This document shows positions 46,017-57,745 of a stretch of 64,000 bases of DNA, one piece after another. Both the position numbers and the translations under genes were made by a program. The notes beneath the pieces are model-generated. The model had not been told where the DNA came from. It saw only the letters and a program-made list of their open reading frames with translations, and searched no databases. This stretch comes from Candidatus Spongiisociaceae bacterium. Its GTDB lineage: Bacteria > Actinomycetota > Acidimicrobiia > Spongiisociales > Spongiisociaceae. The DNA lies in contig OZ253564.1 in assembly GCA_965262915.1 (NCBI GenBank), positions 1,312,001 through 1,376,000 of the forward strand. Reading direction: 5' to 3'. Numbering within the stretch: position 1 is the stretch's first letter; every line of letters begins with the position of its first letter.

Positions 46017-47759
46017 CCCCAATTCTTCATGGGGTTGGTGGTGGGGGTGGGTGGTTTGACACGGGAATGCCCTTCTGACCTGCGATTATGGGCGGTGAAG
46101 AAGTCGTCCATGGTCTCAGTCAGGAGGGCACCCGTATGGTGAAGGCTAACAGCAGTTTGAGGTTGAGGGTCGAGGTGGGGGGTGGCGGTCAGGTGGGTCA
46201 TGTGGGGTTGTGGCTGTTAGGCCGGTTCGCGGATCGTATGCGGGTGGGCGAGGTGCTGTCGGAAGCGTTCGGTGCTTCGGGTGTGGTTCATGATCGGGGC
46301 AGGTTGTTGGTTCATTTGATGCTGGTGTTGGCCGGGGGTGGGGAGGCTTGCACCGACATCGAGACGCTGCGTTCCCAGCGCCGATTGTTCGGCCCGGTGG
46401 CGTCGGACTCGACCCTGTACCGGACCCTCACCGGGGCTGATGAGGGATTGTTGGAGACCCTCGCCGGGGCGATGGTCACAGTCCGGGAACGGGTGTGGGC
46501 TGACTATCCGGCGGGCGAAACGGTGATCTTGGACATCGACTCGTCGGTTCATGAGGTGCATTCGGAGAACAAGCAGCACGCCGCGCCGACCTATAACCGC
46601 AAATACGGGTTCCATCCCCTCTATTGCTTTGGGGACTGGACCGGCGAACCCCTCGCTGCTCGGCTACGGCGAGGCGGCGCCGCGCCCAATCAGGTTTCGG
46701 ACCTGGTCGAGGTGCTGGACGCGGCGGTGGAGGCGCTGCCCAAACGGATGCGGGTGGGTCACTCGCCGGGTGACGACCCCGAGCGGGTGGTCTATCCGAT
46801 CCGGGTCCGGGCCGATTCCGCTGCGGGACCCGCGTTCGCTACCGAATGCCACAAACGTAACATCGGGTTCAGTTTCGTCGCTCGAAGATCCGACGGGATC
46901 GCCGAAGCCCTCAGCCACATTCCCCCAGACGACCCACGCTGGCAGCCCGCCCTTCCCCAACCCAGCCCACCCCAAAACAACAACAGAGGCAACCGGACCG
47001 AGATTGACAACCCCGACACCGCGCAGGCCGACGATCCAGAACCCCAGCGGGTTCGTGCCCATGTGATCGAACTCACCGACCACGTCAAAGCCTACAGATG
47101 GCCCAAAGGCCTCCGACTCGTCATCAGACGCGAACCCCGCCACCCCGGCGCGAAACGATCCCTGTTCGACTCCGACGGCTACCGCTACTGGGGACACTGG
47201 ACCGACCAAGCTCAGCCTGCCCCCGAATCCGACCGCGACATGCGCGCCCACGCCCGAGTCGAAACCCACATCGCCCGCGTCAAAGACCACGGCGGCAGCC
47301 GCTTCCCATTCACCAAATACGCTCCCAACCGGCTCTGGCTCCACATAGTCGCCCTCGCCGACACCCTCGTGCGCTGGTTCCAGAAACTCTCCCTACCCAA
47401 ACACCACCCCCTCACCCGAGCGAAGCCGAAAACACTGCGCCCGAACCTATGGCACATACCAGGCATCATCACCCGCCACAGCCGACAAACCACCCTCCGA
47501 ATACCGGTCACCTGGCCCACCGCCACCCTCATCGCAACCACCCACCAACAAATCCAAGCCCTCTAACCCTGAACCGAACCCCCAACACACCCCCCGAACC
47601 TCAACCCGACCACGCCCCGAACACCAACCCCACCCCCTACGAGCCCACCCCAACACACCCCACCATCCTCAGAACCGGCCAACCCGCCAACAACCACCCG
47701 AAGTACCCCACCCCAAAGCGCTCACACCCCCAAACCCGCCAACGCGTGAAGAATTGGGG
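46017..47759 (+). mobile_element. IS1380-family element, copy 2 (diverged from copy 1)
   Basis: TIRs CCCCAATTCTTCA / TGAAGAATTGGGG; CTAG at 46013 and 47760. Confidence 0.9.
46136..47566 (+). CDS. IS1380 transposase
   Basis: Close paralog of 29207-30658. Confidence 0.9.
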   Translation: MVKANSSLRLRVEVGGGGQVGHVGLWLLGRFADRMRVGEVLSEAFGASGVVHDRGRLLVHLMLVLAGGGEACTDIETLRSQRRLFGPVASDSTLYRTLTGADEGLLETLAGAMVTVRERVWADYPAGETVILDIDSSVHEVHSENKQHAAPTYNRKYGFHPLYCFGDWTGEPLAARLRRGGAAPNQVSDLVEVLDAAVEALPKRMRVGHSPGDDPERVVYPIRVRADSAAGPAFATECHKRNIGFSFVARRSDGIAEALSHIPPDDPRWQPALPQPSPPQNNNRGNRTEIDNPDTAQADDPEPQRVRAHVIELTDHVKAYRWPKGLRLVIRREPRHPGAKRSLFDSDGYRYWGHWTDQAQPAPESDRDMRAHARVETHIARVKDHGGSRFPFTKYAPNRLWLHIVALADTLVRWFQKLSLPKHHPLTRAKPKTLRPNLWHIPGIITRHSRQTTLRIPVTWPTATLIATTHQQIQAL

Positions 47760-47802
47760 CTAGTGATTAGTAGGATGTAACTCTATCTTACGTGGGTTTA
47801 AT

Positions 47803-47846
47803 CTGACACCTGACACCTGACACCTGACACCTGACACCTGACACCT
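47803..47846. repeat. Heptamer tandem repeat (CTGACAC)x6 + CT; resumes at 49328-49341
   Basis: Directly visible; interrupted by IS110 at the CT. Confidence 0.95.
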
Positions 47847-47854
47847 AATGGGGG

Positions 47855-48050
47855 TCCACCACTTCTGCCGGTTTGTCTGGGAGGGTGTGGTGGTTGAGCT
47901 GGCCGGCCGGTGAGTACTGGTGGCACCCGGAACGCTGATTCCTAGTGTCAGATCGTACCCCGGCCGGTTCGCGAGGGCCGCTTGTAGCGCTCATGGGGTG
48001 GCGTGCCACAGAGCACTGATCCATTAGGTCGCCGCCAGGCGTTCTCCACA
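47855..48050 (+). ncRNA. Predicted IS110 bridge RNA
   Basis: Two stem-enclosed loops carrying TGGCACC (47921), GTGTCAG (47945), TGGGGTG (47994) and CCATTAG (48021), matching the target and donor junction; RNA ends approximate. Confidence 0.8.
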
Positions 48051-48086
48051 GCTCGGCAAGAATCGATCCGCACGAGGGAGGCGAAG

Positions 48087-49307
48087 ATGATTTTTGTGGG
48101 TAACGACTGGGCTGAGGGCCACCACGATGTGTATCTGCTGGACGAGGGTGGGACCCGGCTGGGGTTCGCCCGTATACCGGAAGGGATCCAAGGTATAGCC
48201 AGGTTCCACCAGATGGTCGCCGAGCACGCATCGGATGCGGCTGAGGTAGTGGTAGGCATCGAGACCGATCGTGGGCTGTGGGTCGGTGCGCTGGTCGCGG
48301 CGGGCTATGTGGTGTATGCGATCAACCCTAGGGCGGTGTCCCGCTACCGGGACCGTCACAGCCTGGGCGGAGCTAAATCAGACCGCGGTGATGCCAAGGT
48401 GTTAGCTGATCTGGTACGCACCGACCGTCACAACCACCGTCCCGTGGCCGGTGACAGCCCCGAATCGGAAGGTATCAAGATCGTGGCCAGAACGCATCAG
48501 AACCTGATCTGGGCGAGGGTGCGTCACACCAACCAGTTACGCAACGCCCTGCGCGAATACTATCCCGCAGCGCTGGAAACGTTCGCTGACCTGGCCCATT
48601 CCGACGCTGTGGCCGTACTGGGTCGGGCACCCACCCCCGCCCTTGGCGCCCGCCTGACACTGCCCCAGATCCGAGCTGCGCTCAAAAGGGGCGGACGGAA
48701 ACGCAACCTCGATCCGGTCGCCCGCAAAATACAGAAAGGCCTCCGAGCTGCTCACCTCGCCGCACCGGGGCCGGTTGAGGACGCCTTCGGAGCGACTGTC
48801 GGGGCACTGGTGAGCATCATTGGGGAGGCCAACCGCCAGATCAGCCAACTCGAAGCAACCCTGGAGACCCGTTTTGAGCAGCACCCGGACGCCGTGATCT
48901 ACCATTCCCAGCCAGGACTCGGTACTGTGCTCGGCGCCCGGGTGCTCGGTGAGTTCGGGGACGACCCCGACCGTTACACCGGGGCCAAGTCTCGCAGAAA
49001 CTACGCCGGAACGTCGCCCATCACAGTGGCGTCGGGCCGCAAACGTGCTGTCCTGGCCCGCCACGTCCGTAACCGGCGTCTCTACGACGCCTTGGACCAA
49101 TGGGCGTTCTGTTCCCTAACCCCAAGCCCAGGAGCCCGAGCGTTCTACGACCAGAAACGAGCAGCCGGCGACCTCCACCACCAAGCACTCCGAGCCCTAG
49201 CCAACCGACTCGTCGGCATCCTCCACGGCTGCCTCAAACACCGAACCCCCTACAACGAACACACCGCCTGGGCACACCGAACCCTCATCGACCGAGCCGC
49301 AGCTTGA
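48087..49307 (+). CDS. IS110 DEDD recombinase/transposase
   Basis: VGNDW, GIETD and KSDRGDA (DEDD); GTSPITVASG (catalytic Ser region); ALANRL. Confidence 0.92.
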   Translation: MIFVGNDWAEGHHDVYLLDEGGTRLGFARIPEGIQGIARFHQMVAEHASDAAEVVVGIETDRGLWVGALVAAGYVVYAINPRAVSRYRDRHSLGGAKSDRGDAKVLADLVRTDRHNHRPVAGDSPESEGIKIVARTHQNLIWARVRHTNQLRNALREYYPAALETFADLAHSDAVAVLGRAPTPALGARLTLPQIRAALKRGGRKRNLDPVARKIQKGLRAAHLAAPGPVEDAFGATVGALVSIIGEANRQISQLEATLETRFEQHPDAVIYHSQPGLGTVLGARVLGEFGDDPDRYTGAKSRRNYAGTSPITVASGRKRAVLARHVRNRRLYDALDQWAFCSLTPSPGARAFYDQKRAAGDLHHQALRALANRLVGILHGCLKHRTPYNEHTAWAHRTLIDRAAA

Positions 49308-49329
49308 CATTTACGCGCCTGGGGTGTCT
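49304..49329 (+). promoter_or_regulatory. -35 half of IS110 circle-junction promoter
   Basis: TTGACA, 17 nt, then TCT; joined to left-end AAT it gives TCTAAT. Confidence 0.75.
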
Positions 49330-49345
49330 GACACCTGACACCGAC

Positions 49346-51466
49346 CTACCGGCCACCTCCGGCAGGCGGACTCAATCGACGAGCCCATGCCTGGAGGAGC
49401 CGGTCGAGGATCATGGCCAGAAGCACGATCGCCAGCCCGGCCGCGAAGCCCGACCCCACCGAGTCGCTCCGTCGCAAGCCGCGCACCGTCTCCAAGCCCA
49501 GACCCCCGCCCCCGACCAAGCCGGCGATCACCACCATGGCCAGCACCAGCATCACCGTCTGGTTGATCCCGGCGATGATGGTCGGCATGGCGAGGGGCAG
49601 TTGGATCTTGCGCAGGATCTGGCTCTGGGTGGCGCCGAAGGCACGGGCGGCCTCTGTCGCCTCCGCCGAGACCCGGCGGATTCCAAGGCTGGTCAACCGG
49701 GTGGCGGCGGGGAGCGCGTACAGGACCGAGGCGATTATGCCCGGGATCCTCCCCACGTTGAAGAGAATGATCACGGGAACCAGGATCACGAAGCTGGGGA
49801 TGGTCTGGAGGAAGTCCAGCACCGGCTTGAGCATGCGCTCGAACCGGTTGCTACGGGACGAGAGCACGCCCAGTGGGATCCCGAGGACGATCGCCAGGAT
49901 CACCGCCACTATCACCTGTGCCAGAGTGTCCATCGACAGGGTCCACATACCCAGCAGCCCGAGACCCAGGGCGCATGCTCCGGCGAGCGTAGCCAAGCCG
50001 GGGCCGCCGAACCACCATCCTGCCAGTATGACGGCGATCACCACCACCGGCCACGCCAGGGTGGAGCTGAAGAACTCCCGCAGAGGCGTCACCGCATAGA
50101 TGGTCACGAAGTCGCTGAACGGTCCGGTTCCGATCCACGTCTCGCCGATCTGGTACAGGTTCTTGCCGACCCAGTCGACCAGGCTGTCCACCGGAGCGGC
50201 GAAGGAGAATGTGACAGCCGAAGGGAACTCCGCTCCCTCACGGGTGGTGCCGAACACCACGGCAGCGAGCAGGAGTATTCCCCCCACCACCCGGCGCGGG
50301 TGGCGTTGGAGAGCCGTCTCCTCTCCGGTGCGTCTCGTCGTTCTCGCATCGGCCACCAGCGGATAGGAGACCATCCGCCCGGCTGCGCGGATGATCCGAT
50401 CAGCGCCCTCCAGAACCTCTTCGATCCGCCGGATCCACTGATTACCGAAGTAGCGGTCGGGGAAGATGCGCAGCCGTCCCTTCCCGGATCCGAGTCCGGC
50501 CGCACCGTGCATGAGCCGGTCCATGATGATGGCCAGCACCACTATGGCCAGACCGGCTTCGAGGGCGCGTCCCACGAACAGCCTCCGAAGGGATTCGAGG
50601 ACCACCTGGCCGAGTCCCCCGGCACCGATCAGCGCGGCGATCACGACGATGCTGAGCGCCATCATGATCGTCTGGTTGATACCCGTGAGGATGGTCGGCA
50701 TGGCTTGGGGTAGCTGGACCTTGCGCAGGATCTGGCCCGGGGTAGCTCCGAACATCTCGGCCGCTTCCACCGTCGAGGATTCCACCGAGCGGATTCCCAA
50801 CGTCGTCAAACGGATCACGGGCGGGAGTGCGTAGATCACCGTGGCGATGATGGCCGGAACCCGGGCGATCCCGAACAGGAGCACCACCGGGATCAGATAG
50901 ACGAAGGCCGGAAGGGTCTGCATGGCGTCGAGTAGTGGCCTCAGAGCGCGCTCCACGCGCTCCCGCCGGGCCGCCCATATCGCCAAGGGGATACCGATGG
51001 CGACCGAGATGACGACTGCTACTCCCATCAGGGCAAGGGTCTGGACGCTCTCCTCCCAGAGCCCTACCGACCCGAAGTACATGACGCCCGCCGCGGTGAG
51101 GATCCCCCCCTTGAACCCGAGGATGGACGTGGCCACCATTCCTGTGGCCATCACGATGACGAACCACGGCAGCCAGAGGAGAGCGGCTTCGACCCACCGG
51201 AGGCTGTAGTCGATCGCGTCACTGATCGGATTGAGCACCACCAGGAAGAGCCCGTGGGTTGTCTGGTTGCTGATCACCCAGCGGCGCGCCTGGTTGATCC
51301 ACTCGGCCAGCGGGATTCTCCACTCCTCCGGGAAGGGGCCTACCGTGTTCAGCGAGAGTCCCAGCGTCACCAGAGCCGCCAAGGCCACCAGAAGGAGCCC
51401 GCCGGTCCTGATCCGGCGGCGGCGGTCGAGGTCGAGCCGGGTCTCGACCGCCGCCGCGATGCTCAT
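49346..51466 (-). CDS. proW: Glycine betaine/proline ABC permease with two fused ProW domains
   Basis: Two copies of QT.P.FV.L.P...EAA..FGAT..Q.L.K.QLP...GINQT.M. Confidence 0.85.
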   Translation of the reverse strand: MSIAAAVETRLDLDRRRRIRTGGLLLVALAALVTLGLSLNTVGPFPEEWRIPLAEWINQARRWVISNQTTHGLFLVVLNPISDAIDYSLRWVEAALLWLPWFVIVMATGMVATSILGFKGGILTAAGVMYFGSVGLWEESVQTLALMGVAVVISVAIGIPLAIWAARRERVERALRPLLDAMQTLPAFVYLIPVVLLFGIARVPAIIATVIYALPPVIRLTTLGIRSVESSTVEAAEMFGATPGQILRKVQLPQAMPTILTGINQTIMMALSIVVIAALIGAGGLGQVVLESLRRLFVGRALEAGLAIVVLAIIMDRLMHGAAGLGSGKGRLRIFPDRYFGNQWIRRIEEVLEGADRIIRAAGRMVSYPLVADARTTRRTGEETALQRHPRRVVGGILLLAAVVFGTTREGAEFPSAVTFSFAAPVDSLVDWVGKNLYQIGETWIGTGPFSDFVTIYAVTPLREFFSSTLAWPVVVIAVILAGWWFGGPGLATLAGACALGLGLLGMWTLSMDTLAQVIVAVILAIVLGIPLGVLSSRSNRFERMLKPVLDFLQTIPSFVILVPVIILFNVGRIPGIIASVLYALPAATRLTSLGIRRVSAEATEAARAFGATQSQILRKIQLPLAMPTIIAGINQTVMLVLAMVVIAGLVGGGGLGLETVRGLRRSDSVGSGFAAGLAIVLLAMILDRLLQAWARRLSPPAGGGR

Positions 51467-57353: not shown

Positions 57354-57580
57354 CCTCAATTATTAGCGGTGATTGGTGGCGGGGGTGAGTGTTTGACGCG
57401 GGGGTGCCCTTCTGACGTACGATTATGGGTGGTGAAAAGCAGTTCCATGATCGTGTCAGGAGGGCACCCGCATAGTGAAAGGTAGCGGTACGGTGAACCG
57501 TACCGGGTCAACCTCAACCACCCCCCGCACCTCCACACACCCCAAACACCAACTCTCAAGCCTCTCCAACCCATGAAGAT
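57354..57580 (+). mobile_element. Internally deleted IS1380 derivative
   Basis: Matches the IS1380 left end (TTTGAC...GCCCTTCTGAC...CGATTATGGG...TCAGGAGGGCACCCG) and right end (CCAACCCATGAAGA); 14-bp tandem duplication at 57573-57600. Confidence 0.75.
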
Positions 57581-57745
57581 GCTCCTATGAAGATGCTCCT
57601 ATGGTTGTCAAATCGACGGTGGGGCCGCCTCGTGGGTGTGGAGCCACCTCTGGTAGCGGGTGGCGCGTTGGTGGTTGTGGTCGCGGCCGAGCTCGAGTGC
57701 GGAGATGCGGCCGGGATCCGGTCTCGGTGTTAGGAGAGTGGCCTC

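Follow-up and report, generated by a model that had tools for sequence, protein, structure and literature searches.

An IS110-group insertion sequence with a predicted IS621-type bridge RNA in a heptamer microsatellite of a Candidatus Spongiisociaceae genome

The stretch analysed here (the window: 64,000 nucleotides of a Candidatus Spongiisociaceae bacterium, GenBank assembly GCA_965262915.1, contig OZ253564.1, positions 1,312,001 to 1,376,000, forward strand) contains an IS110-group insertion sequence of 1,481 bp at 47847-49327, which has a CT core on either side and lies inside a (CTGACAC)n array. The element very probably transposes by RNA-guided recombination, as IS621 does: its non-coding left end is predicted to encode a bridge RNA with guides for the array in a target-binding loop and guides for the element's own ends in a donor-binding loop. 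Established here are the anatomy of the element, the conserved fold of its left end, guides that covary with their flanks, a junction promoter and an abundance of target sites. What is new is a microsatellite as target, together with guide bases that can wobble at the one variable position of the repeat; the mechanism is known.

The four guides of the window copy (c1 below) stand in the order left target guide (LTG), right target guide (RTG), left donor guide (LDG) and right donor guide (RDG), and follow the strand rule of IS621: top-strand sense in the left guides, reverse complement in the right ones, and overlap with the core in both (positions in Table 1). In the LTG, TGGCACC (47921-47927) is one base apart from the target TGACACC; at this third base an RNA G is opposite a DNA T (G:T wobble). 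The LTG is also mismatched at the second core base. In the LDG, TGGGGTG (47994-48000) is identical to the right end at 49320-49326; differences between LDG and right-end arm, in the cases noted, place an RNA G opposite a DNA A position and are wobble-compatible (read directly). The donor guides are complementary to the arms of the element's own circle junction and vary little, since the donor arms are conserved; the RDGs of three sister copies are exceptions (see below). By the handshake-guide rule, as given in the passages of Hiraizumi 2024 (PMC11208158) drawn on here, the AU past the RTG is opposite donor T and G, and the GU past the RDG is opposite target C and A. A preliminary description of the stretch had proposed an insertion into (CTGACAC)n with a CT core at both ends, and all of its motifs were found where it had placed them; the stems, hairpins and four guides that it gave for loop 1 (target-binding) and loop 2 (donor-binding) were confirmed base for base, in sequence and in complementarity. 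Its remark that the left guides mismatch at or near the core was also correct.

The genome, one contig of 5.06 Mb and 64.4% G+C, contains 11 full-length copies of the element (c1-c11) at 84-100% identity, plus fragments. The element ends are constant across the copies, with CT on both sides in 11/11, and the flanks form five target classes, each matched by its own target loop. The RTG reads GTGTCAG in c1-c4 (right flank CTGACAC), GTGCTAG in c5 (CTAGCAC), GTGCCAG in c6 and c7 (CTGGCAC), CTGATAG in c8-c10 (CTATCA) and AACATAG in c11 (CTATG). On the left side, the guides AGGCTCCT (c8-c10) and ATGCTCCT (c11) are exact copies of the respective left flanks, and the left guide TGGCACC of c1-c7 stands beside the left flank TG(A/G)CACC. 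Variable columns are concentrated in the target guides (13/17, versus 30/187 of the other left-end columns; 11 copies, Fisher p = 4e-7). All 11 copies have loop 2 of a single kind; seven are identical in it, and c3, c9, c10 and c11 show small variants in the guides. Judged by guides and flanks together, the copies represent a natural guide swap inside a single genome. The heptamer microsatellite, named as the target in the preliminary description, was found at c1-c7 and at two broken copies (L017+L013, and L016), all inserted at TGRCAC-CT-RRCAC sites and with RTGs that change with the flank; the mapping of all genomic copies, suggested there as a check, placed c1-c7 at heptamer-type sites and c8-c11 at IS110-family elements, each copy matching its own target loop.

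Copies c8-c10 (G000:C1:4420451-4421935, 3638544-3640028 and 287302-288786) are aimed at AGGCTC-CT-ATCA, about 60-130 nt upstream of, and in opposite orientation to, the 421-aa gene of another IS110-family element (PF01548, 7.9e-24; PF02371, 7.9e-19); by their sites, c8-c10 are one insertion sequence targeting another. Empty sites of the c8 type are present at C1:542070 and 546055, in a locus (L104, G000:C1:541500-547000) where two inverted copies of the 421-aa element stand around an ISL3-family transposase gene (PF01610, 3.8e-59), an arrangement that looks like a composite transposon. The target of c11 (G000:C1:290125-291609), ATGCTC-CT-ATGGTTGTCAA, corresponds to the 3' end of a multi-copy IS110-family element of about 418 aa, read antisense; the TTGACA box of that element lies within this 3' end. 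ATGCTCCTATG has 35 matching places in the genome, about 26 of them with a conserved flank (e.g. C1:2257287); in the window, at about 57579-57603, two c11-type sites lie 14 bp apart in a short tandem duplication. The ...CTCCT targets of c8-c11 may resemble ribosome-site-like targets reported for mycobacterial IS900-type elements.

The same correspondence between guides and flanks was found in relatives. A one-genome-per-species scan gave 242 relative-encoding stretches, and the best 80 of the 242 were used (Acidimicrobiia, Ca. Spongiisociaceae metagenome-assembled genomes, Rhodococcus, Mycobacterium, Nocardia and others; transposases 60-83% identical). A covariance model, made from the 11 own-genome copies with the proposed structure, gave 78 matches, one per locus, in 78/80 of these loci; about 70 matches span the whole model. 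For the guide statistics 15 of the 78 model matches were dropped (cut off, a start other than AATGG, a short flank or an unrecognisable right end), and c11 was left out because of its aberrant right end; the remaining 63 relatives' sites and 10 own copies were parsed, and these 73 sites gave 68 distinct ones after removal of duplicates, with 47 distinct guide pairs. LTG and own left flank agree at 5.28 of 7 non-core positions, versus 2.25 for the flanks of loci with other guides; the RTG is complementary to its own right flank at 4.37 of 5 non-core positions, versus 1.82 for the flanks of other loci (68 sites). None of 10,000 permutations equalled the observed matching, and the covariation of homologous left ends with their flanks, another check put forward in the preliminary description, thereby came out in its favour. 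By position, the RTG match is 1.0, 0.96, 0.87, 0.87 and 0.70, then 0.15; since it falls after the fifth base past the core, the RTG is taken as core plus five bases. The LTG match climbs toward the core (0.38 to 0.98) and is then 0.49 at the second core base; as that base is matched in only 49% of the 47 LTGs, a mismatch there is normal for the clade, c1 included. The handshake rule holds here too: the base past the RDG equals target position 7 in 39/43 classes, versus 0.59 for other targets; target position 6 is matched in only 12/43. The core is CT in 45/47 of the relatives' guide classes, and the left-end start AATGG and the right-end arm TGGG(G/A)T(G/A)T are the same in the relatives.

The left end is predicted to fold as a 5' hairpin, then the target-binding loop, then the donor-binding loop, with the 5' hairpin outside a closing helix that brackets both loops; the order is that of the IS621 RNA, and the closing helix is extra. 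In the 78-row alignment, which was fitted to the covariance model and is hence biased to the model's pairs, the 66 distinct rows have standard pairs in 92.9% of 3,525 cells, versus 37-46% after a shift of the 3' partners by 1-3 columns; changes on both sides occur in 48/62 pairs, and 0/500 shuffles reach the observed values. The three outermost pairs of the closing helix are weak (56.4% paired). A model-free MAFFT/RNAalifold fold of 27 sequences, hand-picked from the 78 matches and the window for diverse guide classes, again gave the outer part of the 5' hairpin, the closing helix, the two stems of loop 1 and, of loop 2, the inner hairpin, with compensatory changes in 17/38 pairs and the guide segments of loop 1 unpaired. 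The 11 own copies are too alike for RNAalifold to show compensatory pairs among them (0 pairs). Support for the structure comes from covariation, not from stability.

The gene that follows encodes a transposase with an N-terminal RuvC-like DEDD domain (PF01548, E = 2.3e-33; residues 4-160 against profile positions 1-155 of 155) and a C-terminal Tnp domain (PF02371, E = 7.7e-9). Its sole relative in the PDB is the IS621 transposase (8wt6, E = 1.3e-7, over the D-x-x-D and Ser-Gly regions); residues 269-390 align with IS621 197-319, the Ser-Gly included, with S316 in the motif ASG. Proposed catalytic residues are D7, E59, D99 and D102 (by motif) and S316. The layout is that of the IS110 group, with a long non-coding end upstream (240 nt) versus 20 nt downstream of the stop; the IS1111-group layout is absent, the structured RNA being upstream of the gene and only 20 nt following the stop. 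The termini AATGGGGG... and ...TGGGGTGT are not mutual reverse complements, i.e., there are no terminal inverted repeats (direct reading). These matches agree with the IS110 assignment of the preliminary description, and structural covariation, guide-flank covariation and the handshake rule agree with the IS621-type LTG-RTG-LDG-RDG layout claimed there. All defining features of an IS110-group element and of a putative IS621-type bridge RNA that can be tested on sequence were found.

Across the ends of the element a promoter would be formed by excision. After TTGACA and a spacer of 17 bases come T(49327) and CT; the -10 box TCTAAT is complete only when these are joined to AAT at 47847-47849. 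TTGAC(A/G/T) stands 17-18 nt before a junction-only hexamer in 67/68 relatives (spacer 17 in 31 loci, 18 in 36), and the hexamer is TCTAAT in 65/67. TTGACA-N17-TCT/AAT is accordingly named here as a predicted junction promoter as described for IS621, and from its position the transcription start of the bridge RNA would lie near 47855-47857. The array was considered as a source of a -35 box in the integrated state and rejected: its CTGACA hexamers stand 0, 7, 14 or 21 nt from CCTAAT, never 17-18.

For the course of transposition, RNA production, protein binding, chemistry and present-day activity are inferred from IS621. Excision would join the right end to the left end over one CT, and only then would TTGACA, the 17-nt spacer and TCT/AAT become a promoter. 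Transcription from about 47856 would give an RNA of roughly 200 nt, then the transposase message; the RNA would fold into its 5' hairpin and into two stem-loops with open internal loops inside the closing helix. A tetramer of the DEDD/Ser recombinase would cut beside CT and the strands would be exchanged, after which the two bases past each right guide would pair with the other DNA, AU with donor T and G, GU with target C and A.

The bridge-RNA anatomy could be real and c1, or the whole heptamer-targeting subfamily, an immobile relic whose matches record past transposition; we consider this unlikely, with a number of observations that do weigh against a working element. All copies differ from one another; c1 and c2, the most similar two, are 97% identical overall. 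The open reading frames (ORFs) of c3 (263 aa) and c11 (344 aa) are truncated; the RDGs of c3, c10 and c11 mismatch their own left ends, two of these copies (c3, c11) being those with truncated ORFs; four further pieces are broken remnants. In c1 itself the LTG and the LDG are both mismatched near the core, the LDG at the base adjoining it. The LTG faces its target with a G:T wobble in 6/7 heptamer-inserted copies and mismatches the second core base in 7/7. IS621, in the parts of Durrant 2024 (PMC11208160) that bear on this, shows low mismatch tolerance and a strong preference for pairing both core bases; because mismatches and an unpaired core base lower IS621 activity in that work, c1 in its natural form may possess a guide RNA of moderate, not optimal, quality. 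A relic is opposed by the intact ORF of c1, in which all five proposed catalytic residues are present; by its four guides, both handshake guides, both ends and the junction promoter, all in place; by the left ends of c1 and c2, which match at 240/240 bases; and by the mismatch at the second core base, which is a rule of the clade and not decay.

The donor-loop variants were read as follows. In c3, c10 and c11, GAGGGGG stands for CATGGGG and CTGCTAG for CCATTAG (alignment columns 146-148 and 176-178); c9 has the first change only. The variant RDG forms one C:A mismatch and two wobble pairs with its own left end. Its occurrence in three target classes suggests exchange between copies. A search of the genome for an alternative donor of the variant RDG gave one place for the right-end arm with CT+AGCAG and none for a circle-junction-like 13-mer, and no matching donor was identified there. 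The right end of c11 (G000:C1:290117-290140) is without the usual TGT before the core (...CCTGGGG+ATGCTC+CT), and nine target bases (GATGCTCCT) are present on both sides of this copy; it may have arisen by gene conversion from another target copy, or by aberrant recombination.

That the structured left end is a mere leader or a protein-binding DNA site, its flank matches being coincidence or recombination leftovers with no RNA guide, is highly improbable. This explanation would account for a left end that is no stabler than shuffled sequence (z = -0.91; 40/200 shuffles fold equally well or better) and that matches no Rfam family at E up to 10 (47600-49500 searched); the RNA class was assigned by analogy because no Rfam family matched. 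Further points against a bridge RNA are the bias of the fitted alignment noted above, the outer stem of the donor loop, which was not recovered in the model-free MAFFT-based fold of 27 sequences, and the high baseline of the donor-loop handshake comparison, with C at target position 7 in 34/47. A leader or DNA site is contradicted by the matching of 47 guide pairs to their flanks, which no permutation reproduced, by adherence to the IS621 strand rule (same sense left, reverse complement right), by the sharp stop of RTG matching five bases past the core, by the guides being the most variable columns of an otherwise conserved left end, and by the compensatory changes in 48/62 base pairs.

The heptamer sites that RNA-guided insertion would use are abundant in this genome. 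TGRCAC-CT-GRCAC sites number 299 in 70 loci, versus 0.92 expected from base composition; as one heptamer serves for both target arms, a site arises wherever two CTGRCAC units adjoin, one per 7 bp. Period-7 tandem runs number 149, four of them G homopolymers; unit families include CTGGCAC, CTGACAC, CCGACAC, CCGGCAA, CCGACTA, CCGACCA and GGACAAC, among others, and examples of arrays are C1:372873-373034, 1214137-1296, 1659788-1659944 and 571375-571575. Three-unit CTGRCAC arrays gave 205 matches here, versus 0-8 in the 40 relatives searched: three of the seven same-genus genomes had 4, 5 and 8, and the 33 other relatives had none; fragmented assemblies may hide some. An RTG for CTGRCAC was found in 0/16 parsed of 20 same-genus loci, two of those genomes being fragmented, with repeats often unassembled. 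Going by these array and RTG counts, a heptamer-directed target loop is confined, within the searched genomes, to where such arrays abound.

Opposite the variable base of the unit stands a G in the LTG of c1-c7 (target A in six) and a U in the RTG of c1-c4; because G and U each pair with either DNA partner by wobble, a single RNA could recognise CTGACAC and CTGGCAC alike. Sister copies that have C or CU there would be narrowed to single variants. We suggest, tentatively and as a doubtful rather than a favoured proposal, that the bridge RNA of this lineage has adapted to a host-specific, hypermutable microsatellite, that the wobble G and U let one RNA read both units at about 300 sites in 70 arrays, and that the arrays serve as renewable, mostly intergenic landing pads. 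The opposite order of events, in which the element made the heptamer repeats by target duplication or by slippage after insertion, would fit the edge position in three long arrays, one side of which could have grown (c6 is at the last of 22 sites), and is scarcely credible against 299 sites in 70 loci versus nine copies (seven full, two broken) at such sites, many heptamer unit families that form arrays without a matching guide, a repeat register in c1 that is restored once the element and one CT are removed, and the insertion of c2, c5 and c7 in sites of just two to three units.

In long arrays the element was found at or beside the edge: c6 (C1:371392-372873) at the last of its 22 in-register sites and c1 at the 6th of 7; c4 is at the 2nd of 2, and c3 at the left edge. 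These positions hint, weakly, that insertion and array growth influence each other; the three long arrays are too few to judge.

Compared with IS621 of E. coli, as described in the parts of PMC11208160 and PMC11208158 used here, the following are the same: the DEDD and Ser recombinase, the CT core, and a left-end RNA downstream of a junction-only promoter; a 5' hairpin followed by target loop and donor loop, with handshake guides after each right guide; left guides complementary to the bottom strand and right guides complementary to the top strand, both overlapping the core; a natural G:T pair in the LTG; and a target that is a repeated sequence of the host. The following differ: the proteins are distant (E = 1.3e-7, two short aligned stretches); the RTG is core plus 5 nt here versus 4 nt in IS621, an extended RTG being noted for other orthologues (PMC11208160); a closing helix surrounds both loops here and is absent from the IS621 RNA domain boundaries quoted from PMC11208158; the second core base is often unpaired in the LTG here; and the target is a heptamer microsatellite in a host of 64% G+C, versus a repetitive extragenic palindromic (REP) element. 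IS110-family elements of Rhodococcus, Mycobacterium, Nocardia and Acidimicrobiia share with the window element transposases 60-83% identical, the RNA model match (78/80 loci, best 80 of 242), the ends and the promoter; their target loops point elsewhere, and their records annotate only 'IS110 family transposase'. The IS1111 group and its seekRNA, in the portion of Siddiquee 2024 (PMC11187229) relied on, likewise have an RNA-guided DEDD transposase, multi-copy host targets and natural re-programming, with REP- and attC-targeting members; in that group, unlike here, the non-coding region is downstream of the gene, the guide order is reversed and there are subterminal inverted repeats. Abundant 7-bp direct repeats are also described as TAACTGA repeats in Beggiatoaceae (PMC4679880) and as heptameric repeats in Nostoc and Xanthomonas (PMC4692102); units and lineage are different, and the sections of these two papers used here mention no insertion sequence aimed at the repeats.

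Published precedents exist for bridge RNAs, for re-programming in nature among related elements and for host-repeat targeting, as parts of PMC11208160 and PMC11187229 set out, and for this reason the novelty of the find was overrated in the preliminary description. Full-text searches turned up no IS110 or bridge-RNA element reported to target a tandem heptamer or microsatellite; the target tables in the supplement to Durrant 2024 may list one. The copies provide a natural guide-swap set, sister copies with one kind of donor loop and five target loops, each at its predicted site. They also provide ready variants for programmability rules in a high-G+C orthologue: the core-plus-5 RTG, G:T and U:G wobble, and the unpaired second core base. 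The target is self-similar and offers a site per 7 bp; through it the fate of the element is bound to a repeat that evolves fast and is lineage-specific. As regards annotation, the covariance model finds the RNA in 78/80 actinobacterial loci (best 80 of 242) where Rfam finds nothing; RNA annotation at present does not cover this family.

Table 1 Features of the insertion sequence and its target array in the window. Coordinates are window positions; LTG, RTG, LDG, RDG, left and right target and donor guides.
Feature	Coordinates	Strand	Basis or remark
Left part of target microsatellite, (CTGACAC) x 6.3	47803..47846	+	Tandem Repeats Finder, period 7, 100% matches
Left CT core, last two array bases	47845-47846	+	Read directly
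Non-coding left end, 240 nt, putatively bridge-RNA-encoding	47847..48086	+	
5' stem-loop	47857..47892	+	Helix 1: 14 pairs, 13 changed on both sides, 93.5% paired; outer part recovered de novo
Closing helix, 5' strand	47893..47901	+	Pairs with 48049-48057; helix 3: 6/6 pairs changed on both sides, 98.4% paired; recovered de novo
Target-binding loop (outer stem, internal loop, hairpin)	47902..47968	+	Helices 4-6, 95.8-99.6% paired; model-free fold
Loop 1 outer stem, CCGGCCGG/GTAC with GTAC/CCGGCCGG	47903-47917 with 47955-47967	+	
LTG, TGGCAC+CC	47921..47928	+	Same sense as left target TG(A/G)CAC+CT
Loop 1 hairpin, GGAA/TTCC	47929-47942	+	
RTG, GTGTC+AG	47945..47951	+	Reverse complement of CT+GACAC
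Target-loop handshake guide, AT	47952-47953	+	Next two bases past RTG; rule of Hiraizumi 2024
Donor-binding loop (outer stem, internal loop, hairpin)	47973..48046	+	Helices 7-11, 82-100% paired
LDG, TGGGGTG+GC	47994..48002	+	Same sense as right-end arm TGGGGTG(T)C
Loop 2 hairpin, GTGC/GCAC	48003-48016	+	Invariant among relatives
RDG, CCATT+AG	48021..48027	+	Reverse complement of CT+AATGG (core and first five bases of left end)
Donor-loop handshake guide, GT	48028-48029	+	Next two bases past RDG; complementary to target AC
Closing helix, 3' strand	48049..48057	+	
Ribosome site of transposase gene, GAGGGAGG	48074-48081	+	
Transposase/recombinase gene, 406 aa and stop	48087..49307	+	Pfam, IS621 alignment, motif positions
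TTGACA, -35 box overlapping stop codon	49304..49309	+	Read directly; kept in relatives
Right-end donor arm TGGGGTGT (49320-49327) and right CT core (49328-49329)	49320..49329	+	
Right part of target microsatellite, (CTGACAC) x 2.1	49328..49342	+	Tandem Repeats Finder, 100% matches

Array and element together occupy the gap between an intact 492-aa DDE_Tnp_1_4 transposase gene upstream (window 46088-47566, plus strand, 2.1e-45) and the 3' end of a 706-aa double BPD_transp_1 permease gene downstream (window 49346-51466, minus strand). The only Rfam match above the gathering score in 47600-49500 is Ms_AS-4 (RF02464, 'Actinobacteria sRNA'), at window 48908-48989 on the minus strand, with 89 bits; it is antisense within the transposase gene, in the conserved Tnp-domain region, and this family seems to stand for antisense sequence of IS110-family transposase genes. 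Part of the stretch is contained, as contigs, in 20 sequencing runs; two are sponge metatranscriptomes with only 0.07 of the sampled words, and no claim on habitat or expression is made from them.

Among the relatives' loci, one relative's element (L029 and L108) has a c11-type left flank (GGATGCTCCT) and a c8-type right flank (CTATCAGGTCAC), and its RTG fully fits neither; the mixed flanks may be the result of a deletion between two nearby insertions. In the present genome the DEDD_Tnp_IS110 profile has 51 matches in 5.06 Mb, 50 of them over the curated cut-off; its IS110-family load is unusually heavy and comprises several subfamilies.

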